Shown: positions 3,205-30,678 of the stretch, one piece after another
Layout of the letters: each line of letters begins with the position of its first letter
How positions within the stretch are numbered: the stretch's first letter is position 1
Source of the DNA: a virus
Taxonomy: Duplodnaviria; Caudoviricetes
Direction: 5' to 3' (one strand)
Virus record (IMG/VR): IMGVR_UViG_3300030330_006022
Span: 32,001 to 96,000 of that record
DNA length: 64,000 nucleotides
The notes under the pieces: generated by a model
What the model was told of the DNA's origin: nothing
Database searches by the model: none
What the model saw: only the letters and a program-made list of their open reading frames with translations
Program-made: the position numbers and the translations under genes

Positions 3205-3233
3205 ATTATAACATAGGATAACTAAAATGTCAA
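3205..3233 (-). promoter_or_regulatory. Sigma70-type promoter on minus strand, TTGACA-N17-TATAAT with extended -10 TG
   Basis: Reverse complement reads ttgacattttagttatcctatgttataat. Confidence 0.7.
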
Positions 3234-7652: not shown

Positions 7653-7664
7653 ACGTGTTATAAT
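7636..7664 (+). promoter_or_regulatory. Consensus sigma70 promoter TTGACA-N17-TATAAT, extended -10
   Basis: ttgacaacaaagaataaacgtgttataat. Confidence 0.85.
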
Positions 7665-7689
7665 ATTATTATTAATCTTTGGAGAGAGG

Positions 7690-15392: not shown

Positions 15393-16064
15393 ATGAACTG
15401 GTTAGAAGAATCTATTAAAAGATCAAAAAAACTAAAGGATCATTACATGCTAAGGGGAATTGACATATATGTTAAAGACCAACTACCTCAAGATATTGAT
15501 GTAGACTTTGTTATAAAGTATGTTGCAAAAAGATTACCTGACCACGTTTTGTCTAATATAGATATTATTTATATTGGACACTTTCAAGATCTTATAGATC
15601 GTGACATTAATGCTTTATGGCAAAATGGAGCAATCTATATCACTAATGATCAAGATAATGAAATGGATATGATTGACGATCTAATTCATGAAATAGCTCA
15701 CTCAAATGAAAAACAATTTGAACGTATAATATATGAAGACGGAAAACTTGAAAAAGAGTTTTTATATAGACGTAAAAAAATTGCTCAAATTCTTGTTGAA
15801 AAGGGTTATGGAGTCCCCACTGGTTTTATATATGATATTTCTTACAATAAAGATATTGATGATTTTTTGTATGAGAAAGTTACATATGATGTTTTGTGGC
15901 AAATAATTCCAGGAATCTTTCCTTCACCTTATGCCGTTACTTCTATAAGAGAATATTGGGCTAAAGGGTTTGAACAGTTTTATATGGGTGACGGTGCTGA
16001 TCTTAAAGAAACTTCACCAGTCTTATTTTCCAAGTTAATGCAGTTAAATGACTTGGAGGATTAA
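15393..16064 (+). CDS. HExxH zincin-like protein
   Basis: LIHEIAHS and downstream REYWAKGFE. Confidence 0.6.
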   Translation: MNWLEESIKRSKKLKDHYMLRGIDIYVKDQLPQDIDVDFVIKYVAKRLPDHVLSNIDIIYIGHFQDLIDRDINALWQNGAIYITNDQDNEMDMIDDLIHEIAHSNEKQFERIIYEDGKLEKEFLYRRKKIAQILVEKGYGVPTGFIYDISYNKDIDDFLYEKVTYDVLWQIIPGIFPSPYAVTSIREYWAKGFEQFYMGDGADLKETSPVLFSKLMQLNDLED

Positions 16065-16837
16065 TGCATATATCATATTCAGAACTTAAAACATGGGCAG
16101 AGTGCGCATGGAAACACAAACTTATATATATTGACAGAGTCAATAAATTTGTTGGAAACGAATACACAGCTTTTGGTAGAGCTTTGCACCTTTTGTGTGA
16201 ACATGCCATAGAAGATAAAATACAAGAAGAAGATTACGATGATTTTTGGGATATAGCTTTTGAAAAAGAAATAATGGATCTTTTAAAAAAGAATGTTGAC
16301 TTAGAGCAAAATATTATAGATATCATGTCCAACCAAGCAAAACGAATATCACCTCAAATAATTCCACAGGTTATAAAAAAGTTTCAGAATTATGAAGTGT
16401 TTTCAGTTGAAGAAAAGCTATATCTTGATATCCCTGAACTTGAAGATTGTAAATTTAAAGGTTTTATAGACCTTGTATTGAAAACAGATGATGGCAAATA
16501 TCATGTTATTGATTGGAAAACATGTTCTTGGGGTTGGGATGCAAAAAAACGCTCTGACAAATATGTAACATATCAATTAACACTTTACAAAAAATTCTTT
16601 TGTTTAAAGCACAATATAGATCCAAAATTAGTTGAGACACATTTTGCCTTACTAAAAAGAACAGCAAAAAAAGATAACGTTGAAATTTTTCGTGTCACTT
16701 CAGGTCCTCGCAAAGTCCAAAATGCTACTGATCTTCTAGTAAAGGCAGTAAGGTCAATATTTAACAAAGCACATTTTAAAAACAGAGGGTCTTGTTCTTA
16801 TTGTGAATTCAACAACACAGAACACTGTCCTAGATAA
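16064..16837 (+). CDS. Cas4-like / RecB-family PD-(D/E)xK exonuclease with probable Fe-S cluster
   Basis: HISYSEL..C, GFIDLV..VIDWKT, YQLTLY, C-terminal CSYC..C. Confidence 0.85.
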   Translation: MHISYSELKTWAECAWKHKLIYIDRVNKFVGNEYTAFGRALHLLCEHAIEDKIQEEDYDDFWDIAFEKEIMDLLKKNVDLEQNIIDIMSNQAKRISPQIIPQVIKKFQNYEVFSVEEKLYLDIPELEDCKFKGFIDLVLKTDDGKYHVIDWKTCSWGWDAKKRSDKYVTYQLTLYKKFFCLKHNIDPKLVETHFALLKRTAKKDNVEIFRVTSGPRKVQNATDLLVKAVRSIFNKAHFKNRGSCSYCEFNNTEHCPR

Positions 16838-16861: not shown

Positions 16862-16890
16862 TTGACAAAGCAAAACCAACGTGTTATAAT
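16862..16890 (+). promoter_or_regulatory. Consensus sigma70 promoter with extended -10 and A-tract UP element
   Basis: ttgacaaagcaaaaccaacgtgttataat preceded by aaaataaaaaaaaataaaaaaaaa. Confidence 0.85.
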
Positions 16891-16912: not shown

Positions 16913-18157
16913 TTGTCAAAAATAAAAATATTAACACTTTCCGACCACCCTCTATCACCTTCCGGCGTTGGAACTCAAACGAAGTATTTCTGTGAGTCCC
17001 TACTTAAGACCGGAAGGTATTCTATTGTATCATTGGGTGGCGCAATAAAACATCAAAACTACAATCCAATACAAGTAGATCCATATGGAGAAGATTGGAA
17101 AATAGTTCCTGTTGATGGTTACGGAACACAAGAAATGATACGATCAGTAATCAAAACCGAAGGTATTGATTTGCTTTGGTTTATGACCGACCCCCGATTC
17201 TGGGGCTGGCTATGGGAGATAGAAAATGAAATTAGACCGCTTTGTCCAATGGTTTATCATCATGTTTGGGACAATTTTCCTGCACCTTACTTTAATAGGG
17301 ATTTTTACTTATCTAACGATCACATTGTCACTATTTCTAAAGTTACTCATGAAATTGTTAAACAAGTAGCACCAGAGATTTCATCAACATATTTACCACA
17401 CTCAGTGAATCCAGATATATTTAAACCTTTAGCTGATAAGCAAATTGAAGAAATAAGAACATCTTCTCTTCAAGAAGAAGATCGGTCTAAAGTTATTTTC
17501 TTTTGGAACAACAGAAATGCTAGAAGAAAACAATCGGGAACTCTTGTTTGGTGGTTTAAGGAATGGCTAGATAAAGAAAATCTTCATGATAAAGCCCAGC
17601 TAATTATGCATACAGAACCTAAAGATCCTCACGGACAAGACTTAGAGCACATAATTAGCCACCTAGGTCTACATAACAGACAAGTAATGTTATCAACTAA
17701 AAAAATAGCTCCTGAACATTTGGGTCATCTATATAATATGGTAGATTGCACTATAAACATTTCAGATGCTGAAGGTTTTGGATTAGCCACACTAGAGTCG
17801 CTTTCTTGTGGAACTCCAATTATAGCCACAATGACCGGTGGTCTTCAAGAACAGGTCACGGATGGAAATGAAGAATTTGGTGTTGGATTATTTCCAAGAG
17901 CTAAAGCCATTATTGGTTCTCAACAAGTTCCTTATATTTATGAAGATAGGGTTGATAAAGCACAATTTCACTCCGCTTTATCAAAAATCTACAAAATGGG
18001 CAAAGAAGAAAGACAAAGACTTGGATCTTTAGGTAGACAACATGTTGAGAAAAATTATAATTTCAACAAATTACAACACAAGTGGGTAGGAATAATAGAC
18101 AAAATTATTGAAGAAAGAGGTTCATATAATGGAATTAGATTTAAGGAGGTTGCGTAA
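16913..18157 (+). CDS. Glycosyltransferase, GT-B/GT4-like
   Basis: NRNARRK, AEGFGLATLE (EX7E); TTG start with GAGGTG SD. Confidence 0.85.
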   Translation: MSKIKILTLSDHPLSPSGVGTQTKYFCESLLKTGRYSIVSLGGAIKHQNYNPIQVDPYGEDWKIVPVDGYGTQEMIRSVIKTEGIDLLWFMTDPRFWGWLWEIENEIRPLCPMVYHHVWDNFPAPYFNRDFYLSNDHIVTISKVTHEIVKQVAPEISSTYLPHSVNPDIFKPLADKQIEEIRTSSLQEEDRSKVIFFWNNRNARRKQSGTLVWWFKEWLDKENLHDKAQLIMHTEPKDPHGQDLEHIISHLGLHNRQVMLSTKKIAPEHLGHLYNMVDCTINISDAEGFGLATLESLSCGTPIIATMTGGLQEQVTDGNEEFGVGLFPRAKAIIGSQQVPYIYEDRVDKAQFHSALSKIYKMGKEERQRLGSLGRQHVEKNYNFNKLQHKWVGIIDKIIEERGSYNGIRFKEVA

Positions 18158-19401
18158 TGAAAAAAAAGATATATGTTAGAGGTCCCGTGTTATCACAATC
18201 AGGATATGGTGAACAGTCACGTTTTGCCCTGAGAGCCTTAAAGAGTAGAGAAGATCTATTTGATATTTATATTCAACCAATACCATGGGGTAAGACTGGC
18301 TGGATCTGGGAAGATACAGAGTTTCGAAGATGGATGGATCAAAGAATAACGCAAACCCAAGTCTTGTTACAACAAAAGCAATTGAGTCCTGATATAAGTT
18401 TGCAAATTACAATACCAAACGAATTTGAGAAAATAGCTCCAATCAACATAGGCTATACAGCTGGTATAGAAACTAACAAGTGCTCCCCTCAATGGCTACC
18501 TAAGTGTAATGATATGGATAAAGTACTGGTTGTTTCAGAACACGCAAAATCCTCTATAGTGAATACAGTAGCAACAGCTACCAATAATAATACTGGAGAA
18601 TCTTTTGATTATAAATGTGAAACTCCTGTAGAAGTTGTATGGGAAAATACAGTAAGATCAGAACCAGAAGAAATACCAGGCTTTGATCTAGAATTTGATA
18701 AAAACTTTTTAGTAGTTTCGCAACTTGGCCCTAGAAAGAATTTTGAAAATACTGTATGTTGGTTTGTTGAAGAATTTATTGATCAAGAAGTTGGATTGGT
18801 TGTAAAGACTAATTTTAAAGGAAACTCAATTGGAGATTTTACACAAGTAGAAAAACACCTTAAGTCTCTTCTTGGACGATATCAAAATCGTAAGTGTAAA
18901 GTTTATCTACTTCATGGGGATCTTAATCCTGGTCAAATGACCTCTTTGTATTCTAATTCTAAAATCACAGCTTTAGTAAATATTTCTCATGGCGAAGGTT
19001 TTGGCTTACCTATATATGAAGCAGCAAGAGAAAGTCTACCTATAATTACATGTGGCTGGTCTGGTCAACTAGATATCCTACATCATGGAGAGAAAGGGTA
19101 TTTTAAATCTGTTGATTATACATTAAGACCAGTACAACAACAAGCAAGGTGGAATGGTGTGATTGAAGAAGATGCTATGTGGGCTTTTGCCGATCAAGGA
19201 TCTTACAAAATGGCACTAAGGTATGTAGCAAAAAATAAAAGTGAATTGAAAGAACAATCAGCTAAATTAAAAGATTTAGTGTTGGAAAAATTTTCTGATG
19301 AAAAGTTGTTTGATTTATTCTGTAAATCAATAGTTGAAGAAGAAATGGATATTGACTCTTGGCTAGAAGAATTAGAATCAGGTATGGTAGAAAGTGAATA
19401 A
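18157..19401 (+). CDS. Glycosyltransferase, GT-B/GT4-like
   Basis: SGYG, PRKN, GEGFGLPIYE. Confidence 0.85.
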   Translation: MKKKIYVRGPVLSQSGYGEQSRFALRALKSREDLFDIYIQPIPWGKTGWIWEDTEFRRWMDQRITQTQVLLQQKQLSPDISLQITIPNEFEKIAPINIGYTAGIETNKCSPQWLPKCNDMDKVLVVSEHAKSSIVNTVATATNNNTGESFDYKCETPVEVVWENTVRSEPEEIPGFDLEFDKNFLVVSQLGPRKNFENTVCWFVEEFIDQEVGLVVKTNFKGNSIGDFTQVEKHLKSLLGRYQNRKCKVYLLHGDLNPGQMTSLYSNSKITALVNISHGEGFGLPIYEAARESLPIITCGWSGQLDILHHGEKGYFKSVDYTLRPVQQQARWNGVIEEDAMWAFADQGSYKMALRYVAKNKSELKEQSAKLKDLVLEKFSDEKLFDLFCKSIVEEEMDIDSWLEELESGMVESE

Positions 19402-20233
19402 AATATATTATTTTTCTGATTTGTTAGTAGAAGATCTGGTTGGCGGTGGTGAACTAAATGACTATGAACTTTGCAGTATGCTTTTAAAAAAAGGATACAA
19501 ACTAACAAGATTAAGAACAAAAGAGATTAAACAAGAACACTTGGACAAAAAATATATTTACATTGTTTCTAATTTTGTAGGCTTAAGACCGGAGTACAAA
19601 GAATACTTAATTAAAAACTGTAAATATATAATTTATGAACACGATCACAAATATCTTGCTTCAAGAAATCCAGCAATATATGAAAATTATCAAGCTCCAG
19701 AAAACAAAATAATCAACAAAAGTTTTTACGAAAACGCACAAATGGTTTTTTGTCAAAGTTCTTTTCATAAAAGCATAATCCAGAAAAATCTACAAATAGA
19801 AAATGTTTATAATGTATCTGGAAACTTATGGTCTATTGATAGTTTAGAAACAATGAGACTTCTGAGTAAAAGGGACAAAAATGATTGTTTCTCTATTTTG
19901 AATTCTATGATAGAACATAAAAACACTAGAGAAGCTGCTTTTTATTGTGATAAAAAAAACTTTAAATATACATTAATATCATCTAGAAATTATCAAGAGT
20001 TTCTTAATATGCTTTCTAGTAATAGTAAGTTTCTTTTTCTTCCTAAAACACCTGAAACTTTATCTAGAGTTGTGGTTGAAGCAATGATGATGAATGTAAA
20101 AGTTGTTACAAATAAAAAAGTAGGCGCATCGTATGAGCCTTGGTTTAATAGAAAAGGAGAAGATTTGATAGACTTTATGTTAAACAAAAGAGAGCATATA
20201 CTTAATAAAGTTTTAGAGGTGTTAGGTGAATAG
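19394..20233 (+). CDS. Putative glycosyltransferase (GT-B)
   Basis: GGGE start motif, PETLSRVVVEA (EX7E). Confidence 0.6.
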   Translation: MNKIYYFSDLLVEDLVGGGELNDYELCSMLLKKGYKLTRLRTKEIKQEHLDKKYIYIVSNFVGLRPEYKEYLIKNCKYIIYEHDHKYLASRNPAIYENYQAPENKIINKSFYENAQMVFCQSSFHKSIIQKNLQIENVYNVSGNLWSIDSLETMRLLSKRDKNDCFSILNSMIEHKNTREAAFYCDKKNFKYTLISSRNYQEFLNMLSSNSKFLFLPKTPETLSRVVVEAMMMNVKVVTNKKVGASYEPWFNRKGEDLIDFMLNKREHILNKVLEVLGE

Positions 20234-20972
20234 TCATTTTAAAATAATAGTTCCACTCTACAATGTTCAAGAGTGGATTAAGCTTTGTCTAAGATCTATT
20301 AAAGGTCAAACATATCGTAATTTTGAATGCATAATTATTGATGATATATCAACTGACAACAGTGTAGAAATAATAAAACAAGAGATTGGCAATGATGATA
20401 GATTTAAATTAATTGTAAATACAGAAAAAAAATATGCTTTAAAAAACATACATGATGCGTTAATCGATTGTAACCCTAATGATGAAGATGTTATAGTAAC
20501 AGTAGATGGAGATGATTGGCTAGCGAATAAAGATGTTTTAAAAACATTAAATGAAGTGTATTCTTCTAATAATTGTTGGATGACTTATGGTAGCTATGCC
20601 GAATACCCTTCTAAAACAAGAGGTAAATTTGCTAAACAAATACCACAACAAGTCATAGATAAAAACTTATTTAGAAAACACGAATGGTGCTCTTCTCATT
20701 TAAGAACTTTTAAACACCACTTATGGAAATCTATTAACAAAGAGGATTTAATAAATCCAGAAACAGGCAAGTTTATTAAAGCTGCATGGGACTTGGCTTT
20801 TATGTTTCCAATGTTGGAAATGTGTGGTAATAAATCTTTTTTCATCGATAAGGTACTGTACATTTATAATAGAGGCAATCCTCTAAACGAAGACAAAGTA
20901 AACCACAGCGTTCAATTAAACGAAGAAAGAATTGTCCGCAATAAAGAAGTATATAATAGGATAGAGAATTGA
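20226..20972 (+). CDS. Glycosyltransferase family 2
   Basis: IIVPLYN, IIDDISTD, VDGDD. Confidence 0.9.
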   Translation: MNSHFKIIVPLYNVQEWIKLCLRSIKGQTYRNFECIIIDDISTDNSVEIIKQEIGNDDRFKLIVNTEKKYALKNIHDALIDCNPNDEDVIVTVDGDDWLANKDVLKTLNEVYSSNNCWMTYGSYAEYPSKTRGKFAKQIPQQVIDKNLFRKHEWCSSHLRTFKHHLWKSINKEDLINPETGKFIKAAWDLAFMFPMLEMCGNKSFFIDKVLYIYNRGNPLNEDKVNHSVQLNEERIVRNKEVYNRIEN

Positions 20973-21805
20973 AAAAAGTAAGTTTAAACATGATCAAAGG
21001 ACCCTTTCAGCACGATATATGTTCTTCTGCTTTAAATACAAACAAGTATGTAGATTGGAAAAAGGATAATTCTGCTGATATATCTTGCCACATTGATTAC
21101 GGATTGCTGGACAAGATAGATAGTACAAAAGAAAATTATGGTTGGGTATGTGAAAGCAGCGCCATAGTTCCATCTGTCATCAAAGAAGTTGTAAAAAACA
21201 AAGAGTCTTACAAAAAAAAATTTAAATACATTTTTACTTGTGATAGTAGAATTGTAAACTTGGATAAAGATTTTTTTAAATTTACTATGCCATCAGCTTT
21301 GCCTTGGATACAAAATAAAAAGATATACAAAAAAACTAAATTAGTTTCTTTTATTGGTTCTAACAAAAAGATGTGTAAAGGCCACCTTTACAGACAAGAG
21401 ATGATAGAAAAATACAAGGATAAAGTAGATCATTATGGTAGAGGTTTTAAAAACAAGGAGCTTCCATGGATGATAGAAAAAGAAAGTGGAAAAATATTAG
21501 GTCTAAAAGAATATATGTTTTCTTTTGCAATGGAAAACACAAACCATGAATACGCATTTTGCGAAAAAACAACTGATTGTTTTGCCACTGGAACCATTCC
21601 AATATATTGGGGTGGAAAAGGAATTAAAGAATTTTTTGATCCTAAAGGCATTATATTTATAGAGGATTTAAACTCTATAGATGAGTTAAATGAGGAATTA
21701 TATAATTCAAAAATTGAATATATTGAGTCTAATTTTAAAAAACTAAACAGCCTATTAACATCAGAAGACTATTTTGTGAAAAACTACATAAGAGGTGAAG
21801 CTTGA
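20969..21805 (+). CDS. GT10-like (alpha-1,3-fucosyltransferase-type) glycosyltransferase
   Basis: YMFSFAMEN..CEK..DCF..GTIPIYWG. Confidence 0.8.
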   Translation: MKKVSLNMIKGPFQHDICSSALNTNKYVDWKKDNSADISCHIDYGLLDKIDSTKENYGWVCESSAIVPSVIKEVVKNKESYKKKFKYIFTCDSRIVNLDKDFFKFTMPSALPWIQNKKIYKKTKLVSFIGSNKKMCKGHLYRQEMIEKYKDKVDHYGRGFKNKELPWMIEKESGKILGLKEYMFSFAMENTNHEYAFCEKTTDCFATGTIPIYWGGKGIKEFFDPKGIIFIEDLNSIDELNEELYNSKIEYIESNFKKLNSLLTSEDYFVKNYIRGEA

Positions 21806-22668
21806 TAACTTGTAAATTTGCTGGTGGCTTGGGAAACAATTTGTTTCAGTTTGCTAATGTTTTTGCATTACATAGAAGACATAATGTTCCCTACTGTATT
21901 CAAAGAGATTTTCAAAGATTAACTTTTGATGGAAAGTTGTTAAAAGACGAACTTAGATTTAAACAAGCTCATGTCTTGGAATTTCAAGAATTATTTGAAA
22001 ATAAGCTTCCTTATATTGAAGAGTTAGCTGTGAACACTAAAAATATGAGCAACTATTATCATCATGATTTGGATGGAAGTAGTAATTTTTTGTTTTCGGA
22101 AGTTAAATTTAAAGATAATACAATGTATTATGGATACTATCAATCTGATAAATATTTTATGGATTCAAATTTGAAAGAAGAGCTGGTTGTCAATCGTGAC
22201 ATCACTGATATTATAAAGGATAGATACGCTGAACTTTTCAACAAACCAACAATTTCATTACAATATAGACTTGGTGGAGATAGAAAGTTAAACAAGATTC
22301 AAAAGTTTCACAAAAACTTAAACCCAAGTTATTACACTAAAGCAGTTGAAGAAATATCAAGCATAACTGGTAAAAAAATTAGTGATTTCAATATTCTAGT
22401 TTTTTCTGATGATCTGGAACTAGCTAAAAAAGCTCTGTCATATACTACTTTAGATTGTGTTTATGTCGAAAACAAAAACAATATAGAAGATTTTATACAC
22501 ATGTCTATATGTGATCATAATATAATAGGAAACTCAACTTTTGCTTGGTGGGCTGCCTACATGAATAAAAACAGCGGATTAGTTATTGCTCCAAAAGATT
22601 TTTTTGGAAAAAATTATAGTAATTTTTTATTAGATGATTTCTATCCCACTGAATGGATAATTTTATAA
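21802..22668 (+). CDS. GT11-like (alpha-1,2-fucosyltransferase-type) glycosyltransferase
   Basis: GGLGNNLFQ, GYYQS, FSDD, CDHNIIGNSTFAWWAAY. Confidence 0.85.
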   Translation: MITCKFAGGLGNNLFQFANVFALHRRHNVPYCIQRDFQRLTFDGKLLKDELRFKQAHVLEFQELFENKLPYIEELAVNTKNMSNYYHHDLDGSSNFLFSEVKFKDNTMYYGYYQSDKYFMDSNLKEELVVNRDITDIIKDRYAELFNKPTISLQYRLGGDRKLNKIQKFHKNLNPSYYTKAVEEISSITGKKISDFNILVFSDDLELAKKALSYTTLDCVYVENKNNIEDFIHMSICDHNIIGNSTFAWWAAYMNKNSGLVIAPKDFFGKNYSNFLLDDFYPTEWIIL

Positions 22669-22678
22669 GGAGAAATAG

Positions 22679-23605
22679 TTGAAAATTATTGGATTAGGAA
22701 AATATGTACCAGAAAGAATCTTGCCAAATGAAGAAATACAGAAAACTGTCAATACAACTTCAGAGTGGATTAAAAGCAAGCTTGGTATAAGTGAGAGAAG
22801 GATTAGCAATAGCGATGAAAAAACTTCCGATCTTGCCTTTAAAGCTAGTTTAAAAGCTTTAAAATCTTGTAATAACTCTATTGATGATATTGATTTGATT
22901 ATTGTTGCAACTTCAACACCAGATAGAAAAAGCCCATCAACTGCTTGTATATTACAAGAAAAATTTGATTGTAAAAATATACCGGCTTTTGATATAAATG
23001 CTGTTTGTTCGGGTTTTATATATGGACTTGATTTGTGTAATTCTTTATTAAACGAAAACAAATACAATAAAATTTTGCTAGTAGGAGCAGAACAGTACTC
23101 TACTATTACAAATTGGGAAAGCAGAGATTGTGTTTTCTTTGGAGATGGTGCTGGTGCTGTTGTGCTAGAAAAAGACGAAACCAGTTTTTTCAAATCAATT
23201 ATAAAAGCTGATGGCAAAGGAAAAGAAAACTTTACAGTTCCTTCTGGAGAAAAGTATTTTAAAATGAACGGAAAAGAAGTGTTTAAGCATGCTACAAATG
23301 TTCTTCCAAGTTCTATAAAACAATTGCTACACGAGAACAATCTAAAATCAAGCGATATTGCCTTGTGTGTTCCTCACCAGCCTAGTATAAGGATTCTTGA
23401 ATTAACAGCTAAAAAAATAGGCTTATCGTTTGATAAAATAGCAAGAACAATGCATAAGTATGCTAATACTGCTGGTGCTTCTATTCCTGTTACTTTGTGT
23501 GATGCTTTTGAACAAGGAAGATTAAAGAAAGGTGATTTAATTTTATTTACAGCCGTAGGTTCTGGATGGACTTGGGGTTCTGCAATTATAAGGTGGGCGA
23601 TATGA
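22679..23605 (+). CDS. fabH: 3-oxoacyl-ACP synthase III (FabH)
   Basis: Catalytic Cys (AVCSGF), His (PHQ), Asn (ANTAGAS); FGDGAGA; GSGWTWG. Confidence 0.92.
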   Translation: MKIIGLGKYVPERILPNEEIQKTVNTTSEWIKSKLGISERRISNSDEKTSDLAFKASLKALKSCNNSIDDIDLIIVATSTPDRKSPSTACILQEKFDCKNIPAFDINAVCSGFIYGLDLCNSLLNENKYNKILLVGAEQYSTITNWESRDCVFFGDGAGAVVLEKDETSFFKSIIKADGKGKENFTVPSGEKYFKMNGKEVFKHATNVLPSSIKQLLHENNLKSSDIALCVPHQPSIRILELTAKKIGLSFDKIARTMHKYANTAGASIPVTLCDAFEQGRLKKGDLILFTAVGSGWTWGSAIIRWAI

Positions 23606-24252
23606 AAAAAATGTTAATTATTGGTGGATCTGGTGGTATTGGAAAAGAAATGACAAAACTGTTTTCAGATAAATATGAAGTTTTATCATGTAGTTCTAAA
23701 ACTTTTGATATAACTAACTTGCCCTTTCTAGATAGGTTTTTTAGTCTTAATACATATGATATTATTCTAAATGCTTCTGGTTACAATTATGATTCTTTTG
23801 TTCATAAATATAGTATAAAAAATATACATGAGGTTGACAAAATGATTGATATCAATGTAAAAGGTAATTTAAACCTACTTTCAGCTTGCCTCCCTGGTAT
23901 GAGAAAACAAGGAAATGGTAGAATAATATTTTTATCTTCTGTTTTGTCAACGATGCCTGTAGCAGGAACATCAGTATATTCCGCATCCAAAGCTTTTATA
24001 GATAATTTAGTCAAAACTGTAACTTTAGAAAACTTATCTAAAGGCATAACTTGTAATTCTATACAATTAGGATATTTTGATGCTGGAATGGCACATAGAA
24101 TTCCTGAAAAAATTATCAATAATATAGTAGATGGTATTCCATTAAAAAGATTGGGAAAAATGGAAGAACTTTACAACACAATAGAGTATCTTATAAACAC
24201 AGAGTATGTTTCTGGTACTTCAATAAAAATAAATGGAGGCATTGATTTATGA
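23602..24252 (+). CDS. FabG-like short-chain dehydrogenase/reductase
   Basis: GGSGGIG, NASG, YSASK, IPLKRLG; ATGA overlap with fabH. Confidence 0.85.
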   Translation: MKKMLIIGGSGGIGKEMTKLFSDKYEVLSCSSKTFDITNLPFLDRFFSLNTYDIILNASGYNYDSFVHKYSIKNIHEVDKMIDINVKGNLNLLSACLPGMRKQGNGRIIFLSSVLSTMPVAGTSVYSASKAFIDNLVKTVTLENLSKGITCNSIQLGYFDAGMAHRIPEKIINNIVDGIPLKRLGKMEELYNTIEYLINTEYVSGTSIKINGGIDL

Positions 24253-24770
24253 AACATGGAATAGACTTTTATATAAATGATGATGTTGTAATCAAAAGAA
24301 ATGAAACAGCAATATTTGGCAACCATGTTGCCATCGACAAAGGCTTTTACTGTACTACTCAAATAAATGTAGGTGATTATGTTCACATTTCTCCTTACTG
24401 TACTGTAATAGGTGGAAAAGATGGCATGTTTATAATGGAAGACTTCACAGGTCTTTCAGCTGGATGTAGAGTAGTTTGTTGTGGAGATGATTACATCTCA
24501 GGACACTTGATGAACCCAACTGTGCCAATAAAATATAGAAAAGTAAAAAATGATAAAGTTGTTTTAAAAAGATTCAGTTGTTTAGGGACAAATTGTGTTG
24601 TATTACCAGGTGTGGTAATTGCAGAAGGTTCAGTTATAGGAGCTAATTCTTTGGTAAATAAATCAACAGAACCTTGGACTGTTTATGTTGGTAGTCCGGC
24701 AAAACCAATAAAAAAAAGATCTAAAGAGTTATCTTATAAATTTGCTAAGGAGCTTGGGTATGAATTATAA
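24249..24770 (+). CDS. Hexapeptide-repeat (left-handed beta-helix) acyltransferase
   Basis: LGTNCVVLPGVVIAEGSVIGANSLV..YVGSPAKPIK. Confidence 0.9.
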   Translation: MKHGIDFYINDDVVIKRNETAIFGNHVAIDKGFYCTTQINVGDYVHISPYCTVIGGKDGMFIMEDFTGLSAGCRVVCCGDDYISGHLMNPTVPIKYRKVKNDKVVLKRFSCLGTNCVVLPGVVIAEGSVIGANSLVNKSTEPWTVYVGSPAKPIKKRSKELSYKFAKELGYEL

Positions 24771-25659
24771 CGCAAAAGATGATTATGTTAATAAAGACTC
24801 TATGTCTATGCCATGGGTTGAATCACCTTTTTTTGAATCTATTTTACAAAACTTAGATGTATCTGAAGAATTAAAAAGTATGGCTAGAAAATACAACAAA
24901 GACGGTTATGTGATTTTAGATTTAAACTTAGATGATGACATAATATTTAAAATCAATGAAGATGTAAAACAAATCATAAAATCTAAAAATTTTGTGGGAC
25001 AAGAGAAATATGAATATACAGATCACAGAAGGCTTTTCCAAGCTTGGAAAAAAAGTAAAAATGTAAGAAGTTTAACAAAAAACGAGAAGATACTAAGTGC
25101 CTTAAGATTTCTTTATAATAGAGAACCTTTTGCTTTTTCAACAATTAATTTTACTAATCCAACTTCACAACCTCTACACAGCGATACGATACATTTCAAC
25201 TCCTATCCAAAAGGATGGATGGTTGGTGTTTGGGTTGCTTTTGAAGACTGTGACGTGTCAAATGGAGCTTTGAGAGTTGTTAAAGGTAGTCATAAATGGA
25301 AAGAGTACGATTATAACTGTATAAATATAATCCACCCAGATAACAGAGATGATGGAGAAAAAAAATCATACAGAGATTATGATCAATTTGTCAGAAGATT
25401 AGTTGTGTCAAAGAACGCAAAAGAAGATTCTGTTGTAATGAAAAAAGGACAAGCAATTATTTGGTCTGCTAATTTACTTCATGGCGGTACACCAGTTGAA
25501 AATGATAAGGTTACAAGAAGATCCCAAGCCATTCATTACTTTTTTCATGGATGTAAAAAATATTACACACCAATGTTTTCAGAACCAATGTTAGGCAAGT
25601 ACGCTGAAAAATGGTGTAATGAGAAAGAAAATGTATTCACATATAAGGAGAAAAAATAA
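24760..25659 (+). CDS. PhyH-family 2OG-Fe(II) dioxygenase
   Basis: LHSD (HxD), VWVAFED, NGAL..GSH, LLHGG, RRS; AAGGAG SD. Confidence 0.85.
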   Translation: MNYNAKDDYVNKDSMSMPWVESPFFESILQNLDVSEELKSMARKYNKDGYVILDLNLDDDIIFKINEDVKQIIKSKNFVGQEKYEYTDHRRLFQAWKKSKNVRSLTKNEKILSALRFLYNREPFAFSTINFTNPTSQPLHSDTIHFNSYPKGWMVGVWVAFEDCDVSNGALRVVKGSHKWKEYDYNCINIIHPDNRDDGEKKSYRDYDQFVRRLVVSKNAKEDSVVMKKGQAIIWSANLLHGGTPVENDKVTRRSQAIHYFFHGCKKYYTPMFSEPMLGKYAEKWCNEKENVFTYKEKK

Positions 25660-26255
25660 TGTCTTTTCAAGTAATTGCTGATTTTGAGAAAGAAATAGCT
25701 AATTTCTTCGGAGCTCCATATGCAGTAGCAGTGGATTGCTGCACACACGGAATTGAGCTTTGCTTAAGAATGAAGCAAGTTAAAAAAATAAAAGTCCCAA
25801 AGAGAACTTACTTATCTGTTCCAATGTTAGCTAACAAACTTAATATTGATCTGGAGTGGACCAATCAGGTGTGGCAAGATTATTATCATCTAACTGATGA
25901 CATAATTGATGCTGCTGTTTTATGGAGAAAGAACAGTTATATTGCTGGTACATATATGAGTGTGAGTTTCCAATTTAGAAAACACTTAAGTCTTGGTAGA
26001 GGTGGTATAATATTGTTTGATAAAGAAGAAGATTTCGACACATTGAAAAGAATGTCTTATGATGGAAGACACCCAGACCAACGATGGCACTTGCAGAATA
26101 TAAAAACTATGGGATATCATTACTACATGACTCCTGAAACAGCTGAACTTGGTTTACAAAAGCTTCCTGAAGCAATTGAAAGAAAACCAAAACAATGGGT
26201 TTATACAGATTGGCCCGATCTAACTACAATGGATTTTTTTAAGGAGAACAAATGA
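25659..26255 (+). CDS. DegT/DnrJ-like PLP sugar aminotransferase, short form
   Basis: FE..A..FG..AVAVDCCT, IIDAA, SFQFRKHL..GRGG. Confidence 0.8.
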   Translation: MSFQVIADFEKEIANFFGAPYAVAVDCCTHGIELCLRMKQVKKIKVPKRTYLSVPMLANKLNIDLEWTNQVWQDYYHLTDDIIDAAVLWRKNSYIAGTYMSVSFQFRKHLSLGRGGIILFDKEEDFDTLKRMSYDGRHPDQRWHLQNIKTMGYHYYMTPETAELGLQKLPEAIERKPKQWVYTDWPDLTTMDFFKENK

Positions 26256-27169
26256 AAATATTATTATTAGGATCAACCGGTTTTATTGGTAGTAACCTAA
26301 AAACAAGACTAGAAAAAGAAGGACACACGATTTTTACTGCTGAAAGATCTAGTGGAGTAGATATAAGAAGATACAACGATATTCGCTTCACTATAAAATA
26401 CACCAAACCAGATGTCATTTACAATTTAGCTTCTCACGGTGGCAGTGTGCACTATGTAAGAAATAACTCAGCTGATGTTTTTCAAGACAATGTTTTAATG
26501 GCAATTAATTTATACAAAGCCATTTCAGAAGTTAACAAAGATATAAAGGTTATACAGCCTTTCTCTAACTGTTCTTATCCTGGAAAAAGTGATGTCCAAT
26601 ATGAAGAAGAGTGGTTGGATGGCGATGTACATCCATCAGTATTTTCTTTTGGTAATTCTAAAAGAACAATTTTTTATTTATCAAAATGTTACAAACAGCA
26701 ATACGGAATAAGATCAGTAAACATATTGTTTCCTAATACTTATGGCCCTGGTGACTCTTTAGATCCAAACCACACACATGCTTTAAACGGCATGATCATA
26801 AGGATGCTAGAGGCTCAAAAAAAAGGTGACGAAGAATTTGTAGTCTGGGGGACTGGTTCTCCTATTAGAGAGTGGGCTTATATTGATGATTTTATAGAGG
26901 TACTAGTTAGGTGCTTAGAGATCGAAGGTCAAGAGTATCCTGTAAACATGGGCCAAGAAAAAGGATATTCTATTGCTGAATCTGCTGGTTTGATTAAAAG
27001 AGCCTGCAAGTTTAAAGGAAAGATAACTTTCGACACAAAATATAGAGATGGAGACCCAGTTAAAATAGTAAGTGGAGAAAAGTTCAAACAATTATTTAAA
27101 GACTTTGAGTTCTTTGATCACTATCAAGGAATAAAAAATACAGTAAAATACTATAAGGAGAAAAAATGA
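26252..27169 (+). CDS. GDP-fucose synthase (Fcl/WcaG)-like epimerase/reductase
   Basis: GSTGFIG, SNCSYP, NTYGPGD, HTH, VVWGTGSPIREW; YxxxK reads FGNSK. Confidence 0.8.
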   Translation: MKILLLGSTGFIGSNLKTRLEKEGHTIFTAERSSGVDIRRYNDIRFTIKYTKPDVIYNLASHGGSVHYVRNNSADVFQDNVLMAINLYKAISEVNKDIKVIQPFSNCSYPGKSDVQYEEEWLDGDVHPSVFSFGNSKRTIFYLSKCYKQQYGIRSVNILFPNTYGPGDSLDPNHTHALNGMIIRMLEAQKKGDEEFVVWGTGSPIREWAYIDDFIEVLVRCLEIEGQEYPVNMGQEKGYSIAESAGLIKRACKFKGKITFDTKYRDGDPVKIVSGEKFKQLFKDFEFFDHYQGIKNTVKYYKEKK

Positions 27170-28104
27170 AAAAAATATTGATCACAGGCGGAGCTGGTTA
27201 TGTTGGTACTACATTAATACCACTTCTACTTGGAAAAGGATATGAAGTTACTGTCATAGATAGCTTGATATTCAATAATGGTGACAGACTAATACCCTTT
27301 ATGTCAAATGAAAATTTTAGTTTTGTAAAAGGAGATGTTAGAGACTTAAAATTATTAAGTGGGCTAGTAGGTGGTAAAGATGTAGTAATACATTTGGCTG
27401 CGTATGTTGGCTTTCCTTTGTGCAGACTAAAAGGAGAAAAAGAATCATATGATGTGAACACAAAAGCAACTGAAGATTTGGTTAATATGTTAGAAGAAAA
27501 CCAGTATCTACTTTTTGGCTCAACAGGTTCAAACTATGGTGAAGTTGTAGGTTTGTGTACTGAGGAAACACCACTAAACCCTCTATCAATTTATGGTAAA
27601 ACTAAAACTGATGCTGAAAGAATTGTAATGACGCGTAAAAATTCAACAGCTTTTCGTTTTGCCACAGCTTTTGGAATTTCACCTAGAATGAGACTAGACC
27701 TTTTAGTAAATGATTTGACCTATAAAGCAATGACGGAAGGATATGCTGTTATTTATGAATCTCATTTTTTGAGAACATTTATCCACGTTAGAGATTTGGC
27801 AAGATCTTTTCTTTTTGCAATCGAAAACCAAGAAAAAATGATTTCTAATGTTTATAATGTTGGTTCTAATAAGATGAATCATACAAAAAGGGAAGTCTGC
27901 GAAAAGATAAATGAGCAAGTGCCAAATGCTTTTTTCCATCATGCTTCAATCAAAGAAGACCCAGATAAAAGAAATTATAAAGTATCTTATGATAAAATAA
28001 ACTCTCTAGGATTTGAAGTTGAGGTAGACTTAGAAACAGGTATTAAGGAAATTAAAGATTGTGTCATATTATTAGAAAACTCTCTGAGGTATAGAAATGT
28101 CTAA
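27166..28104 (+). CDS. NAD-dependent nucleotide-sugar epimerase/dehydratase
   Basis: ITGGAGYVG, HLAA, YGKTK, RMRLDLLVN. Confidence 0.9.
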   Translation: MKKILITGGAGYVGTTLIPLLLGKGYEVTVIDSLIFNNGDRLIPFMSNENFSFVKGDVRDLKLLSGLVGGKDVVIHLAAYVGFPLCRLKGEKESYDVNTKATEDLVNMLEENQYLLFGSTGSNYGEVVGLCTEETPLNPLSIYGKTKTDAERIVMTRKNSTAFRFATAFGISPRMRLDLLVNDLTYKAMTEGYAVIYESHFLRTFIHVRDLARSFLFAIENQEKMISNVYNVGSNKMNHTKREVCEKINEQVPNAFFHHASIKEDPDKRNYKVSYDKINSLGFEVEVDLETGIKEIKDCVILLENSLRYRNV

Positions 28105-28399
28105 AGATATAACATTTGAAGAATACTACGAGCACTACTTGACATTACACCAAAACAAATGGTGTAGAAGACTTCATGTTTTAGGACAGATAATGACTAT
28201 TGCTTTTGTTGTTATTTGTATTAAATATAGTTTGTGGTTATTGTTGCTAGCAACACCGTTTGTAGTTTATCCTTTTGCTTGGACTGGTCATTACATCTTT
28301 GAAAAAAATGAACCTGCTGCGTTTAAAAACCCTTTGTGGGCTAAAGCTTGTGATTGGGTTATGCTAAAGGATATAATAATAGGTAAAATACCGTTTTAA
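28097..28399 (+). CDS. DUF962/Mpo1-like membrane protein
   Basis: YLTLHQ..CRRLH, FAWTGHYIFEKNEPA..P. Confidence 0.8.
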   Translation: MSKDITFEEYYEHYLTLHQNKWCRRLHVLGQIMTIAFVVICIKYSLWLLLLATPFVVYPFAWTGHYIFEKNEPAAFKNPLWAKACDWVMLKDIIIGKIPF

Positions 28400-28409
28400 G
28401 GAGAAAAAA

Positions 28410-29261
28410 ATGAAAAAAGTATTAGTAACAGGTGGTTGTGGATTTGTAGGAAGTAATTTGGTAGATATACTGATTAATAGCGGTAATCATGTTACTGTTA
28501 TCGATGACCTGTCTTTTGGTAAAAAAGAATATTGTAATATAAAAGCAAAATATATATTTGATGATTTTAAAAAGGTGTTAAATAATCACGAAGAAAAATA
28601 TGATGTAATATATCATTTAGCAGCTGAGGCTAGAATACAACCATCTTTTAAAAATCCTCTGTATACTTGTGAAAACAATTCTTATGGAACTGCAATAGTT
28701 TGTGAATATGCAAGAAAAAACAATTCCATGATTGTGTATGCTGGTTCTAGTTCATTTTATGGTGGTGTGTATTTAAATCCATATGCATTCGCAAAATGGC
28801 AAGGTGAAGAAGTCATACAAATGTATACTAAAGTATATAATGTGAAAAGCGGAATAGCCAGGTTCTTTAATGTTTATGGGCCTAGAAACCCTTTGATAGG
28901 TCAATACACACCCGTGGTAGCTATTTTTGAACAGCAAATGCTAGACTTTAAACCACTAACAATTGTTGGAGACGGAGAGCAAAGAAGAGACTTTACTCAC
29001 GTATATGATATATGTCAAGGGTTAATTGACATTTCTTTGGAAGATAGACAAGGAGAGGTATACAACCTAGGAACAGGTAAAAACTTTTCCATAAATGAGT
29101 TAGCTGACTTATTTGGTGGAGAGAAAAAGTACTTACCTGCTAGACCTGGAGAAGTTAGAGTAACACTTGCTGACACATCTAAAATAAATAAAGCAACTGG
29201 CTGGAAAGCCAAATACGATTTAGAAAAATACATAAAGGAGTTTAAAAATGAAATTATCTGA
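28410..29261 (+). CDS. NAD-dependent epimerase (UDP-glucose 4-epimerase-like)
   Basis: VTGGCGFVG, HLAA, YAFAK, RFFNVYG, GDGEQRRDFTHV. Confidence 0.9.
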   Translation: MKKVLVTGGCGFVGSNLVDILINSGNHVTVIDDLSFGKKEYCNIKAKYIFDDFKKVLNNHEEKYDVIYHLAAEARIQPSFKNPLYTCENNSYGTAIVCEYARKNNSMIVYAGSSSFYGGVYLNPYAFAKWQGEEVIQMYTKVYNVKSGIARFFNVYGPRNPLIGQYTPVVAIFEQQMLDFKPLTIVGDGEQRRDFTHVYDICQGLIDISLEDRQGEVYNLGTGKNFSINELADLFGGEKKYLPARPGEVRVTLADTSKINKATGWKAKYDLEKYIKEFKNEII

Positions 29262-29433
29262 TCAAGCACTTGGAGCTATTATGATGGCTCTTCAAAAGTC
29301 TCTACTAGAGCAATCTGATATCACACCCGTCTTAAAAGGTATGGAGTTTGATATAATGGACAACGGAGAGCTTCTTGTTAAGAATCCTCCTGTTGTCAAA
29401 ACAAATGTAAACGTTGGCGTTAAAGATGCCTAG
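29248..29433 (+). CDS. Small hypothetical protein
   Basis: 61-aa ORF with AAGGAG SD. Confidence 0.6.
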   Translation: MKLSDQALGAIMMALQKSLLEQSDITPVLKGMEFDIMDNGELLVKNPPVVKTNVNVGVKDA

Positions 29434-29674
29434 ATACGTCTACAGATGTTCTAAATGCGAAGGAGAGTTTCAAGTTCGTCATGGAATGAGTGAAACTCAG
29501 GAACATTGTGAATTGTGTGAGGCTACAGGAACTCTTCAACGCATCCCTCAACTAACTTCCATTTCTAAACCTCCGTCGGAAGAGGGAAAGAGAGTTAAAG
29601 AAGCTATTGAGGATAATAAGAAAATATTTAAAGAACTATATAACGAAGCGAGGACACAAACATATGACGATTGA
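29426..29674 (+). CDS. FmdB-family zinc-ribbon protein
   Basis: MPRYVYRCSKC..F..CELC. Confidence 0.75.
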   Translation: MPRYVYRCSKCEGEFQVRHGMSETQEHCELCEATGTLQRIPQLTSISKPPSEEGKRVKEAIEDNKKIFKELYNEARTQTYDD

Positions 29675-30089
29675 TGCTGCTCTTACAATTGTGCTTTTAG
29701 GGAGCCTAGGATGTAATTTATTGGCCGCTGTTTACATTAGAGACATACTAGGTAGGCTTGGCTGGTTAACGCAAAATTTGGCTAATTTAACGGAATTAAT
29801 AAGAGGTTTTCAAAACCACATTAGAGGTGTCCATGAGCTTGAGAAGTTTTATGGAGACAAAGATTTAAAATTACTTGTTCAACATACAAGTGATTTGATA
29901 GAGGTCATGGATGATTATTTAGAGGTTGGATTGGATTCTGAATTAATCGAGGAAGAACTAACCGAGGACAACACAAATGACACAACGAAAAAGAAAACCG
30001 AGAACAAAAAGGATGTATTTTACTCAGATACACGAGGACGCGATTCTGAAGTATTGCGATCCGGCTACGACTTATCTGGAAAAGTGTGA
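29664..30089 (+). CDS. Hypothetical membrane-anchored protein
   Basis: N-terminal TM segment then coiled region; GAGG SD. Confidence 0.55.
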   Translation: MTIDAALTIVLLGSLGCNLLAAVYIRDILGRLGWLTQNLANLTELIRGFQNHIRGVHELEKFYGDKDLKLLVQHTSDLIEVMDDYLEVGLDSELIEEELTEDNTNDTTKKKTENKKDVFYSDTRGRDSEVLRSGYDLSGKV

Positions 30090-30678
30090 ACTATATGAAA
30101 ATTTAATACAACCTGCTTTTTCTGAAATGGTTGATAAAATAGTATTCACTTATAGGTTTACCACTTTACCTAATATAGAAGATCTTAGAGAGGACTGCAA
30201 AGTTTGGCTCACCACTATATTAGCTAAATATGACCCCAATCGTGGATCAAAAGCATTTTCATACTTTTCAGTAATAACAAAAAATTGGTTTATTCACCAA
30301 GTAAAGAAAAACTCTAAAAGAGCAAAAAGAGAAGTTGATTTTGAATCAGCGGATGCTGAGTTAGAAAAAGCAAAACTAACAACTAGAAACCTATATGTAG
30401 AACAACAAATAGAAAAAGAGTTCTGGGAACACTTGTGGGCTGAAATAAACAGCTGGGAAGTATCTATTATGAATGAAAATGAAAAGAAAGTATACAATGC
30501 TGTTAAAATTCTTTTAAACTCAAAAGAAGAAATAGATATTTTTAATAAAAAAGCAATATATTTTTATCTCAGGGAAATAACAGATTTAAACACAAAGCAA
30601 ATTGTTTCTCAACTAAACAAGATGAGAAAAAAATACAAAACTTTCAAGTACAAATGGGATAATCACAAATTTGAGTGA
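29977..30678 (+). CDS. Phage RNA polymerase sigma factor (probable late sigma)
   Basis: Sigma region-2-like EDLREDC..KYDPNRGSKAFSYFSVITKN; no obvious region 4; sits just before the structural module. Confidence 0.7.
   Translation: MTQRKRKPRTKRMYFTQIHEDAILKYCDPATTYLEKCELYENLIQPAFSEMVDKIVFTYRFTTLPNIEDLREDCKVWLTTILAKYDPNRGSKAFSYFSVITKNWFIHQVKKNSKRAKREVDFESADAELEKAKLTTRNLYVEQQIEKEFWEHLWAEINSWEVSIMNENEKKVYNAVKILLNSKEEIDIFNKKAIYFYLREITDLNTKQIVSQLNKMRKKYKTFKYKWDNHKFE

Follow-up and report, generated by a model that had tools for sequence, protein, structure and literature searches.

A clade of T4-like phages keeps a fixed slot for exchangeable glycosylation genes, a candidate virion glycan system

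On what molecule would an uncultured marine T4-like phage place a glycan that takes 15 of its own genes to build? The question is raised by a glycosylation island at positions 16913-29261 of a 64,000-nucleotide stretch of virus DNA (hereafter the window, to which all positions refer unless stated otherwise), which is bases 32001-96000 of a 114,350-bp IMG/VR virus record (IMGVR_UViG_3300030330_006022) estimated to be 63% complete. Here we describe a slot, conserved across a clade of such phages, in which a universal pair of GT4 glycosyltransferase genes is followed by accessory genes that differ from phage to phage. We tentatively favour virion or other phage proteins as the acceptor of the glycan, at somewhat below even confidence, and weigh this reading against three rivals.

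A 15-gene glycosylation island

The island comprises 15 open reading frames (ORFs), all on the + strand, with adjacent ORFs overlapping or at most 10 nt apart. Profile searches with Pfam and NCBIfam found, in place, every enzyme class named in an original prediction made from the sequence alone. The genes, which include enzymes acting on nucleoside diphosphate (NDP) sugars, short-chain dehydrogenases/reductases (SDRs) and enzymes that work with acyl carrier protein (ACP), are, in order:

16913-18157, + strand: GT4a, retaining GT-B glycosyltransferase of the clade-wide core (Pfam Glycos_transf_1, 2.7e-13)
18157-19401, + strand: GT4b, second core GT-B glycosyltransferase (Pfam GT4-type match)
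19394-20233, + strand: X, compact 279-aa GT-B glycosyltransferase, semi-conserved (by fold; AlphaFold2, Foldseek)
20226-20972, + strand: GT2 (GT-A) glycosyltransferase, 248 aa, soluble (Pfam, 1.3e-20)
20969-21805, + strand: GT10-like enzyme, alpha-1,3/4-fucosyltransferase family (Pfam Glyco_transf_10, 48 bits, cut-off 23.9)
21802-22668, + strand: GT11-like enzyme, alpha-1,2-fucosyltransferase family (Pfam Glyco_transf_11, 66 bits, cut-off 23.9)
22679-23605, + strand: FabH-type beta-ketoacyl-ACP synthase III (NCBIfam NF006829, 360 bits, cut-off 249)
23566-24252, + strand: FabG-type 3-oxoacyl reductase, a classical SDR (Pfam adh_short, 5.7e-29; NCBIfam 3-oxoacyl-ACP reductase families below cut-off)
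24249-24770, + strand: left-handed beta-helix (LbH) sugar N-acyltransferase (Hexapep; PDB 3vbi series, 7.4e-29)
24742-25659, + strand: PhyH-family Fe(II)/2-oxoglutarate dioxygenase (Pfam PhyH, 3.5e-23)
25659-26255, + strand: mini sugar aminotransferase, 198 aa (Pfam DegT, 5.5e-15)
26252-27169, + strand: Fcl-like NDP-4-keto-6-deoxyhexose epimerase/reductase, an extended SDR (NCBIfam GDP-L-fucose synthase, 2.1e-46, 159 bits, below the 500-bit cut-off)
27166-28104, + strand: GalE/RmlB-like extended SDR, NDP-sugar epimerase or dehydratase (Pfam, NCBIfam)
28097-28399, + strand: Mpo1-like (DUF962) protein, 100 aa (Pfam PF06127, 2.8e-30)
28410-29261, + strand: RmlB/GalE/GMD-like extended SDR, candidate 4,6-dehydratase, end of the variable block (Pfam GDP_Man_Dehyd, 2.1e-40; NCBIfam)

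The predicted count of six glycosyltransferases, three of them GT-B enzymes, stood, with X placed in the GT-B class by its predicted fold. X matched nothing in Pfam or NCBIfam, and its profile retrieved nothing from the PDB below E = 0.27. Its AlphaFold2 model (predicted local distance difference test, pLDDT, 94.2) matched only GT-B enzymes in Foldseek, among them T4 alpha-glucosyltransferase (AGT), Gtf3/GtfC and BshA at about 1e-7; T4 AGT was the top match, no better than many other GT-B enzymes. X also carries a conserved E221-x7-E229. The aminotransferase was likewise present by its DegT match, in a minimal 198-aa form and not as a full-length DegT enzyme.

One slot, a fixed core and an open pool of accessory genes

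A megablast search of the 12.3-kb island against GenBank phages gave zero matches, and the GT10-like protein retrieved no relatives as a query because the accessory genes are too divergent; we therefore changed anchors to the gp6-like protein and GT4a. The gp6-like protein retrieved three related contigs (G001-G003). The search with GT4a gave 250 IMG/VR contigs; we fetched 80 of these, and the locus counts below refer to them. For whole-genome gene searches we used 25 records, namely the one that contains the window and 24 relatives; 12 of the 25 have a completeness of at least 90%. Complete genomes in the clade measure 185-204 kb, and the island takes up to about 7% of the genome.

Across the clade the slot runs from the exonuclease through the island to the Zn-ribbon and sigma genes. 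Its flanks in the window are:

16064-16837, + strand: exonuclease, conserved left flank (PHROG 69; 79 of 80 loci)
29248-29433, + strand: 61-aa ORF, overlapping the last island gene and the Zn-ribbon gene, first of the conserved right flank (DNA conserved in G001)
29426-29674, + strand: Zn-ribbon (FmdB-like) protein, conserved right-flank marker and anchor for measuring the island
29977-30678, + strand: gp55-like late sigma factor, conserved right flank (PHROG 234; 69-89% identity in G001-G003)

Conservation falls sharply beyond the first two island genes. PhoH, a 223-aa ORF, the exonuclease, GT4a and GT4b each occur in 73-80 of the 80 loci, X in 52 and GT2 in 21, while counts for the other window genes range from 0 to 21; the GT10-like gene has counterparts in 8 loci, the GT11-like gene in 9 and the Mpo1-like gene in 3, and none of the 80 relatives carries a counterpart of the window's PhyH. 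Among loci that reach the right flank, island length ranges from 2.6 kb (GT4a and GT4b alone) to 10.9 kb, placing the window's 12.3 kb among the largest. Clustering of the 599 accessory ORFs gave 207 clusters, of which 113 have a single member. Representatives of the clusters include GT1, GT2, GT10, FkbM and other methyltransferases, DegT, RmlC, hexapeptide transferases, UDP-glucose dehydrogenase, radical SAM, cytidylyltransferases and PhyH, a repertoire typical of glycan tailoring.

A comparison of cassette content among related phages, which the original prediction had proposed as a check, thus returned a conserved GT4a-GT4b pair and a differing remainder. The same pattern was seen at close range. 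Two of the three contigs retrieved with the gp6-like protein hold a similar-sized island in the same slot, in which GT4a, GT4b and X (and GT2 in one) are 36-86% identical to those of the window and everything downstream differs: one continues with a GT-D-like protein, GNAT, mini-DegT, HAD, nucleotidyltransferase, GT2 and GMD-like SDR genes, the other with a PseB/CapD-type dehydratase and a phosphonate module. Identity of the mini-DegT to that of the window is 76-77% in phages with 59-65% identity in GT4a, and only 34-35% in phages with 86% identity in GT4a. From this discordance it follows that accessory alleles move laterally.

The phosphonate module occurs in 2 of the 80 loci (L011:9136-13059, equal to L016:16557-20480, and L056:13015-14961). 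It consists of a phosphoenolpyruvate (PEP) mutase-cytidylyltransferase fusion, a split phosphonopyruvate decarboxylase and an iron-dependent alcohol dehydrogenase (Fe-ADH), and by its gene content represents a phage-encoded potential for phosphonoglycans.

The exonuclease-glycosyltransferase-glycosyltransferase synteny extends to three cultured phages: Flavobacterium phage immuto, in which additional GT2, WecE-type and methyltransferase genes follow; Microcystis phage Mel-JY01, also with further genes downstream; and Rhodothermus phage RM378, which has the minimal two-gene form. Their hosts belong to three phyla (Bacteroidota, Cyanobacteria and that of Rhodothermus) and have different envelopes.

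The core pair and its mannose supply

GT4a and GT4b were each present in all 80 loci, GT4a at 58-89% identity. Since the EX7E motif is invariant in both (E287...E295 in GT4a, E280...E288 in GT4b), both look catalytically competent from their sequences. The motif also ruled out an analogy that we considered, with the GtfA/GtfB pair of serine-rich-repeat adhesin glycosylation, in which GT4b would be a non-catalytic partner of GT4a.

Against the PDB, the best match of the GT4a profile was B736L of chlorovirus NY-2A (2.1e-13, end to end), and B736L was the sole match of the GT4b profile (2.2e-7). Further solved GT4 relatives of GT4a are BshA, sucrose-phosphate-synthase-like enzymes, TreT and PimB, and GT4a passes the Pfam 'GT4 in conflict systems' model (40.5 bits, cut-off 26). 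B736L is a virus-encoded glycosyltransferase that binds GDP-mannose (PMC9614988).

A possible source of mannose lies upstream of the island:

7636-8490, + strand, true start ATG 7691: eukaryotic-type phosphomannomutase (PMM) gene (Pfam PF03332, 5.1e-32; ribosome-binding site; own perfect sigma-70 promoter at 7636-7664)

PMM is encoded in 10 of the 12 near-complete relatives, and a phosphomannose isomerase (PMI)-like cupin in 10 of the 12. PMM probably supplies mannose-1-phosphate to the island, and the two enzymes together suggest a phage-encoded route from fructose-6-phosphate to mannose-1-phosphate. A search of five genomes turned up no NDP-sugar pyrophosphorylase; we infer a sugar supply centred on GDP-mannose, with the activation step left to the host. 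The window's own record also holds a PMI-like cupin (MannoseP_isomer, 6e-16), at 7603-7926 of that record, 24 kb upstream of the window.

Predicted sugar chemistry

FabH is 50-57% identical to cellular FabH and up to 81% identical to other metagenomic copies. The best PDB match of the LbH acyltransferase is the 3vbi series, which we take to be AntD, the N-acyltransferase of anthrose biosynthesis. The mini aminotransferase consists of the pyridoxal-phosphate (PLP) large domain only, without the C-terminal domain of all solved DegT enzymes. Its SFQFRK segment aligns with SFQNGK, which holds the Schiff-base lysine of 3-amino-5-hydroxybenzoate (AHBA) synthase, and this lysine, K108, is invariant in 17 homologues. 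The AlphaFold2 model (pLDDT 88) matched GDP-perosamine synthase, AtmS13 and ArnB best in Foldseek, with TM-scores of 0.65-0.70. Such mini sugar aminotransferases of about 200 aa form a family, made up of the window protein (25659-26255) and 16 homologues, and occur in 17 of the 80 islands.

At the level of enzyme families, the Fcl-like SDR, the GT10-like and GT11-like enzymes, the AntD-like acyltransferase and the perosamine-synthase-like mini aminotransferase make the expected multi-sugar, fucose-like, N-acylated glycan a fair prediction. A 6-deoxyhexose and an N-acylated amino sugar are reasonable candidates for its components.

Transcription of the island

The island is headed by a consensus promoter:

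16862-16890, + strand: sigma-70-type promoter, TTGACA-17 nt-TATAAT with a TG-extended -10 (12/12; 22 nt 5' of the GT4a start; A-rich tract upstream)

Perfect sigma-70 sites are far more frequent in the window than expected (4 observed, 0.12 expected). Terminator-like sites are not, at 7 in the window and 7.5 in shuffles, and none lies on the + strand after 26635. The chain of overlapping genes continues past the island through the 61-aa ORF and the Zn-ribbon gene to the gp55-like sigma gene. The arrangement foreseen for the locus, a single promoter with no terminator ahead of the sigma gene, is thus what the window holds, its hairpins being at shuffle level. Three perfect promoters on the + strand (at 7636, 15341 and 16862), which precede the PMM gene, the 223-aa ORF gene and the island, respectively, have TTGACA-N13-CGTG-TTATAAT in common and A-rich tracts upstream.

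The closer subclade keeps the island's sigma-70 promoter at 11-12/12; in the distant one, GT4a directly adjoins the gene for the exonuclease. By these sequence features the island is an early or middle transcription unit, read from a sigma-70 promoter or co-transcribed with the exonuclease gene. Timing, being early/middle in both subclades, is no help in choosing between acceptors.

The pathway is soluble

No membrane protein is encoded in the window's island, and 0 of 585 island ORFs have three or more transmembrane-like segments. Searches for Bac_transf (PF02397), WecA/MraY-type transferases (PF00953), Wzx (PF01943) and Wzy_C (PF04932), with positive controls, found none in the 25 records. 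The noted lack of a flippase, polymerase, ligase and priming transferase therefore holds for the island and extends to all 25 records, the 12 near-complete genomes included. Nor does the island contain a Gtr module (GtrA flippase, bactoprenol glycosyltransferase and serotype-specific membrane glycosyltransferase): it has no membrane proteins, and its GT2 is a soluble 248-aa protein. The pathway is thus soluble. In common with O-antigen and capsule loci, it joins glycosyltransferases and NDP-sugar modifying enzymes in one operon. The original prediction had taken the missing export genes to favour protein over O-antigen as acceptor; the absence is borne out, but it leaves room for a remodelling of host lipopolysaccharide (LPS) or O-antigen with the help of the host's own MsbA, Wzx or ABC exporters.

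What receives the glycan

We lean, with reserve, towards virion or other phage proteins. The core glycosyltransferase pair and its synteny are kept across hosts of three phyla, in some phages with nothing else beside them, which argues for a conserved acceptor that the phage itself brings. A more specific version, which we put forward still more guardedly, is that a globally abundant marine and freshwater T4-like clade gives its own virions a coat of glycans that are exchanged laterally and differ from strain to strain, probably on the giant lectin-bearing baseplate/fibre proteins rich in [ST][GA]S. Such a coat would carry fucose-type, N-(hydroxyacyl) amino, methylated and even phosphonate-bearing sugars, and would be built from a two-enzyme priming pair with no export step.

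Several points weigh against an acceptor on the virion. Soluble glycosyltransferases can also work at the inner face of the membrane, with lipid A-core or undecaprenyl-linked intermediates as substrates, and host exporters could complete the process; for that reason the absence of export genes from the phage is not decisive. GT10 and GT11 are classically LPS and O-antigen enzyme families in bacteria. The island is an early/middle unit amid DNA-metabolism genes (PhoH and exonuclease; in RM378, ribonucleotide reductase (RNR), Erf and helicase), outside the late structural module. For every member of the clade the acceptor is so far a prediction, and for B736L itself none has been assigned (PMC9614988). 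Comparable islands of pelagimyophages and cyanomyophages have been read as modifying the host O-chain (PMC7029224; PMC12801897). Finally, the [ST][GA]S enrichment comes partly from repeated domains and from turns at the ends of beta-strands, the motif often following a hydrophobic strand end.

The enrichment itself is confined to outer baseplate/fibre ORFs, at 45636-57533, 44198-45646 and 57523 to the end of the window, with 60 motifs against 13.6 expected (z = 14.5) in the 3965-aa protein, z = 4.0 in the 482-aa protein and z = 3.3 in the 2547-aa protein, other ORFs not being enriched. Because repeats and turns explain part of it, we did not use [ST][GA]S as evidence for an acceptor sequon and keep it only as a lead.

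Among the rivals, remodelling of the host envelope is the most serious, though we consider it rather unlikely. Here soluble phage enzymes would assemble or lengthen a glycan whose carrier is the host's lipid A-core, an undecaprenyl-linked intermediate of O-antigen or capsule, or an S-layer or pilin glycoprotein; host MsbA, Wzx, an ABC exporter or a ligase would bring the product to the surface, where it would block superinfection or the loss of progeny on debris. Early/middle expression from a sigma-70 promoter fits this account, as do the GT10, GT11, GT2, SDR, DegT and LbH genes that bacterial O-antigen and capsule loci usually carry, an island hypervariability that mirrors host O-antigen diversity, accessory genes 50-57% identical to cellular homologues, and the published interpretation of the pelagimyophage and cyanomyophage islands just mentioned. 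It has more difficulty with the absence of a priming transferase, flippase and polymerase/ligase from 12 near-complete genomes and of multi-pass proteins from 80 islands. A host-specific acceptor is also hard to fit to core glycosyltransferases and synteny that persist over three host phyla with unrelated envelope glycans, to minimal islands made of the two core enzymes alone, and to accessory alleles that circulate among phages instead of tracking the host.

Another cytoplasmic acceptor seems improbable to us: a non-virion phage protein, a host protein modified for takeover or anti-defence, a small molecule or lipid (compare BshA, MshA and PimA), or a free oligosaccharide. All enzymes being soluble agrees with this, as does the passing of the 'GT4 in conflict systems' model by GT4a; besides B736L, the nearest solved GT4 relatives (BshA, sucrose-phosphate-synthase-like, TreT, PimB) are small-molecule or lipid glycosyltransferases. 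Yet rapidly diversifying rare-sugar and tailoring genes (methyl, N-acyl, phosphonate) signify an exposed, recognised surface and not a metabolite or internal target, and no candidate acceptor of this kind was identified.

DNA hypermodification, the alternative named alongside the original prediction, would place an oligosaccharide on a modified base against restriction, with an arms race against modification-dependent nucleases driving variability. The island's place amid DNA-metabolism genes, its early expression and the top Foldseek match of X to T4 AGT speak for it, as do documented phage DNAs with mono- to trisaccharides (bioRxiv 10.1101/2023.12.21.572611; PMC13326640). The known routes need either a thymidylate synthase (ThyA) homologue, for 5-hydroxymethylcytosine (5hmC), 5-hydroxymethyluracil (5hmU) or 5-hydroxycytosine (5hoC), or a methyltransferase/TET (MT/TET) pair (bioRxiv 10.1101/2023.12.21.572611; PMC13326640). 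A ThyA homologue (PF00303; control positive) was absent from the 25 records, and a C5-cytosine methylase (PF00145; control positive), on which the MT/TET route depends, and TGT/DpdA were absent from the five genomes searched; a search with Tet_JBP (PF12851) gave no match, but its control likewise matched nowhere. Immuto, which has a homologous island, has canonical dA, dC and dT, with fdPreQ1 in place of dG, by liquid chromatography with ultraviolet and mass-spectrometric detection (LC-UV-MS; PMC10516641). With these enzymes missing, with the pyrimidines and dA of immuto canonical, and with six glycosyltransferases and an N-acyl amino-sugar pathway far exceeding any known DNA glycan, we regard DNA as a very improbable acceptor.

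A working model

On the reading that we favour, the genes make up this phage's form of a soluble glycan-assembly system common to the clade. GT4a and GT4b would start the chain on a conserved cytoplasmic acceptor with one or more sugars, probably mannose taken from GDP-mannose, and the accessory genes would make strain-specific donors and extensions. In one branch, a 4,6-dehydratase-type SDR and the Fcl-like epimerase/reductase would yield a 6-deoxyhexose for attachment by the GT10-like and GT11-like enzymes. In the other, the mini aminotransferase is predicted to give a 4-amino-4,6-dideoxyhexose. FabH and FabG, working on host ACP, would supply a 3-hydroxyacyl group with which the AntD-like enzyme N-acylates this sugar, and PhyH may add a further hydroxyl group to the N-acylated product. 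X and GT2 would attach further residues. Read early to mid infection from a promoter for host sigma-70, the operon would have its enzymes ready when the late proteins appear. At least one of the phage's own virion proteins would be the most likely acceptor, giving each strain a different glycan coat.

Relation to known glycosylation systems

Among the closest known systems are those of the cyanomyophages (P-SSM2, S-SCSM1, S-SCSM2R) and pelagimyophages, likewise marine T4-like phages with soluble glycosyltransferases (GT10, GT11, GT2, GT1) and NDP-sugar epimerases in variable regions (PMC12801897, PMC7029224). Glycosyltransferase-rich hypervariable regions of marine myophages are thus already published (PMC12801897; PMC7029224). 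The clade described here is a different phage lineage: a tblastn search with GT4a found no match in cyanomyophages or pelagimyophages and matched only immuto, Mel-JY01, RM378 and one huge-phage contig. Its island also has a single fixed place ahead of the late sigma gene, with a universal GT4 pair as its anchor, and is not part of a tail-fibre 'host recognition cluster'. A 2015 survey of Far-T4 phages does not mention glycosyltransferases. Within the limits of our literature searches, the fixed slot, the universal GT4 pair (usually accompanied by PMM and the PMI-like cupin), the open, laterally exchanged pool and the cross-phylum argument appear to be undescribed.

Precedents for sugars on virions come from two quarters. 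Freeman et al. (2023; cited in PMC12619734) reportedly used mass spectrometry to show O-glycans at the C-termini of capsid and tail-tube proteins in mycobacteriophages Che8, Corndog and Myrna. These siphoviruses and myoviruses, which infect Actinobacteria, are said to have one to four glycosyltransferase genes within the late structural operon. The two systems share phage-encoded soluble glycosyltransferases without export genes and a proposed glycan coat on the particle. They differ in that the present island has 15 genes with full donor-sugar pathways, forms an early/middle unit, is known from its genes alone and is unrelated in sequence; lying upstream of the late sigma gene, it does not show the mycobacteriophage placement of glycosyltransferases within the late structural operon. 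Virion glycosylation is established for some mycobacteriophages (PMC12619734) and for giant viruses (PMC9614988). The giant-virus systems, chlorovirus capsid N-glycans and Megavirinae fibril clusters, also combine virus-encoded soluble glycosyltransferases with rare bacterial-type sugar pathways, in clade-specific clusters with a conserved core and a variable periphery, and B736L is the best solved relative of our core enzymes (PMC9614988). Those viruses infect eukaryotes, however, the similarity to B736L is modest (2e-13, 2e-7) and no further gene is held in common.

The anthrose pathway of Bacillus (AntA-D) decorates the exosporium glycoprotein BclA. It shares with the island an AntD-like LbH acyltransferase (3vbi presumably being AntD) beside a sugar aminotransferase and a hydroxyacyl-donor module, an analogy that predicts a 4-(3-hydroxyacyl)amino-4,6-dideoxyhexose on a glycoprotein. 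The two differ in the acyl donor, which FabH and FabG would provide in the island and which involves an enoyl-CoA hydratase in Bacillus; the aminotransferase here is the 198-aa minimal form, and there is no collagen-like BclA homologue. Phage DNA glycosylation (T4 alpha- and beta-glucosyltransferases, RB69 arabinosyl-5hoC and MT/TET/glycosyltransferase clusters) resembles the island in its early GT-B enzymes in T4-like phages and its diverse glycans, and differs in that the ThyA homologue and C5-methylase are absent here and the DNA of a cultured relative is not glycosylated (PMC10516641). The likeness to bacterial flagellin glycosylation islands, drawn in the original prediction, is loose: the general makeup is shared, but Maf-type transferase and nonulosonic-acid genes are not, as none of the 15 island proteins matched the MAF_flag10, NeuB or PseB-I families in Pfam and NCBIfam, with only weak, sub-threshold similarities to LegB, LegC and PseC.

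Phage identity, distribution and neighbouring genes

The window carries the markers of a T4-like myophage, namely gp25-like and gp6-like baseplate wedge proteins, a gp55-like late sigma factor, PhoH and an exonuclease; the baseplate genes, sigma factor and PhoH, within a 114-kb IMG/VR virus record, corroborate the supposed phage origin. Every large ORF lies on the same strand, GC content is about 32-35% throughout, and the island shows no anomaly in composition.

GT4a homologues are widespread: a large protein collection holds at least 7993 matching clusters (at 90% identity) from public metagenomes, and none of the contigs that bear them is larger than phage size. The metagenome-assembled genome (MAG) bins of such contigs (Flavobacteriales, Pelagibacter, Woesearchaeota, WOR-3, Neomarinimicrobiota) are mutually inconsistent. 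One homologue (64% identity, residues 3-312) sits within a 2.85-Mb 'WOR-3 bacterium chromosome' MAG (L101, CP070664.1, 1482603-1495526). Bacterial or archaeal placements of this kind are probably mis-binned or mis-assembled phage contigs or regions. FabH homologues point weakly to Bacteroidota as host; we gave up assigning a host from FabH homologues and MAG bins because the signals are inconsistent.

Two further genes of the window deserve mention. A 1304-aa ORF upstream of PhoH (10083-13997) has zero Pfam or PHROG matches. A 356-aa protein (3227-4297) contains a NUDIX domain (residues 147-258), and its N-terminal part has a weak PHROG match to phosphoheptose isomerase; it may be a sugar-nucleotide hydrolase tied to the glycan system.

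Implications for phage biology

With at least 7993 GT4a clusters, this would be among the commonest phage gene sets in the sea. To our knowledge, modification of the host O-antigen is the usual assumption for 'LPS-like' islands of phages and has never been tested. Our analysis provides a minimal conserved unit of two GT4 enzymes that can be assayed and a cross-phylum argument for a phage-borne acceptor, and the cultured phages immuto, Mel-JY01 and RM378 make the question of the acceptor directly testable. If the glycan is indeed on the virion, this would change our understanding of marine phage adsorption, decay, grazing and evasion of defence. Phosphonate-bearing variants would then tie phages to the marine phosphonate pool, their particles being a source of glycan and phosphonate organic matter, and virion glycosylation would be a mainstream feature of phages and not a peculiarity of mycobacteriophages.

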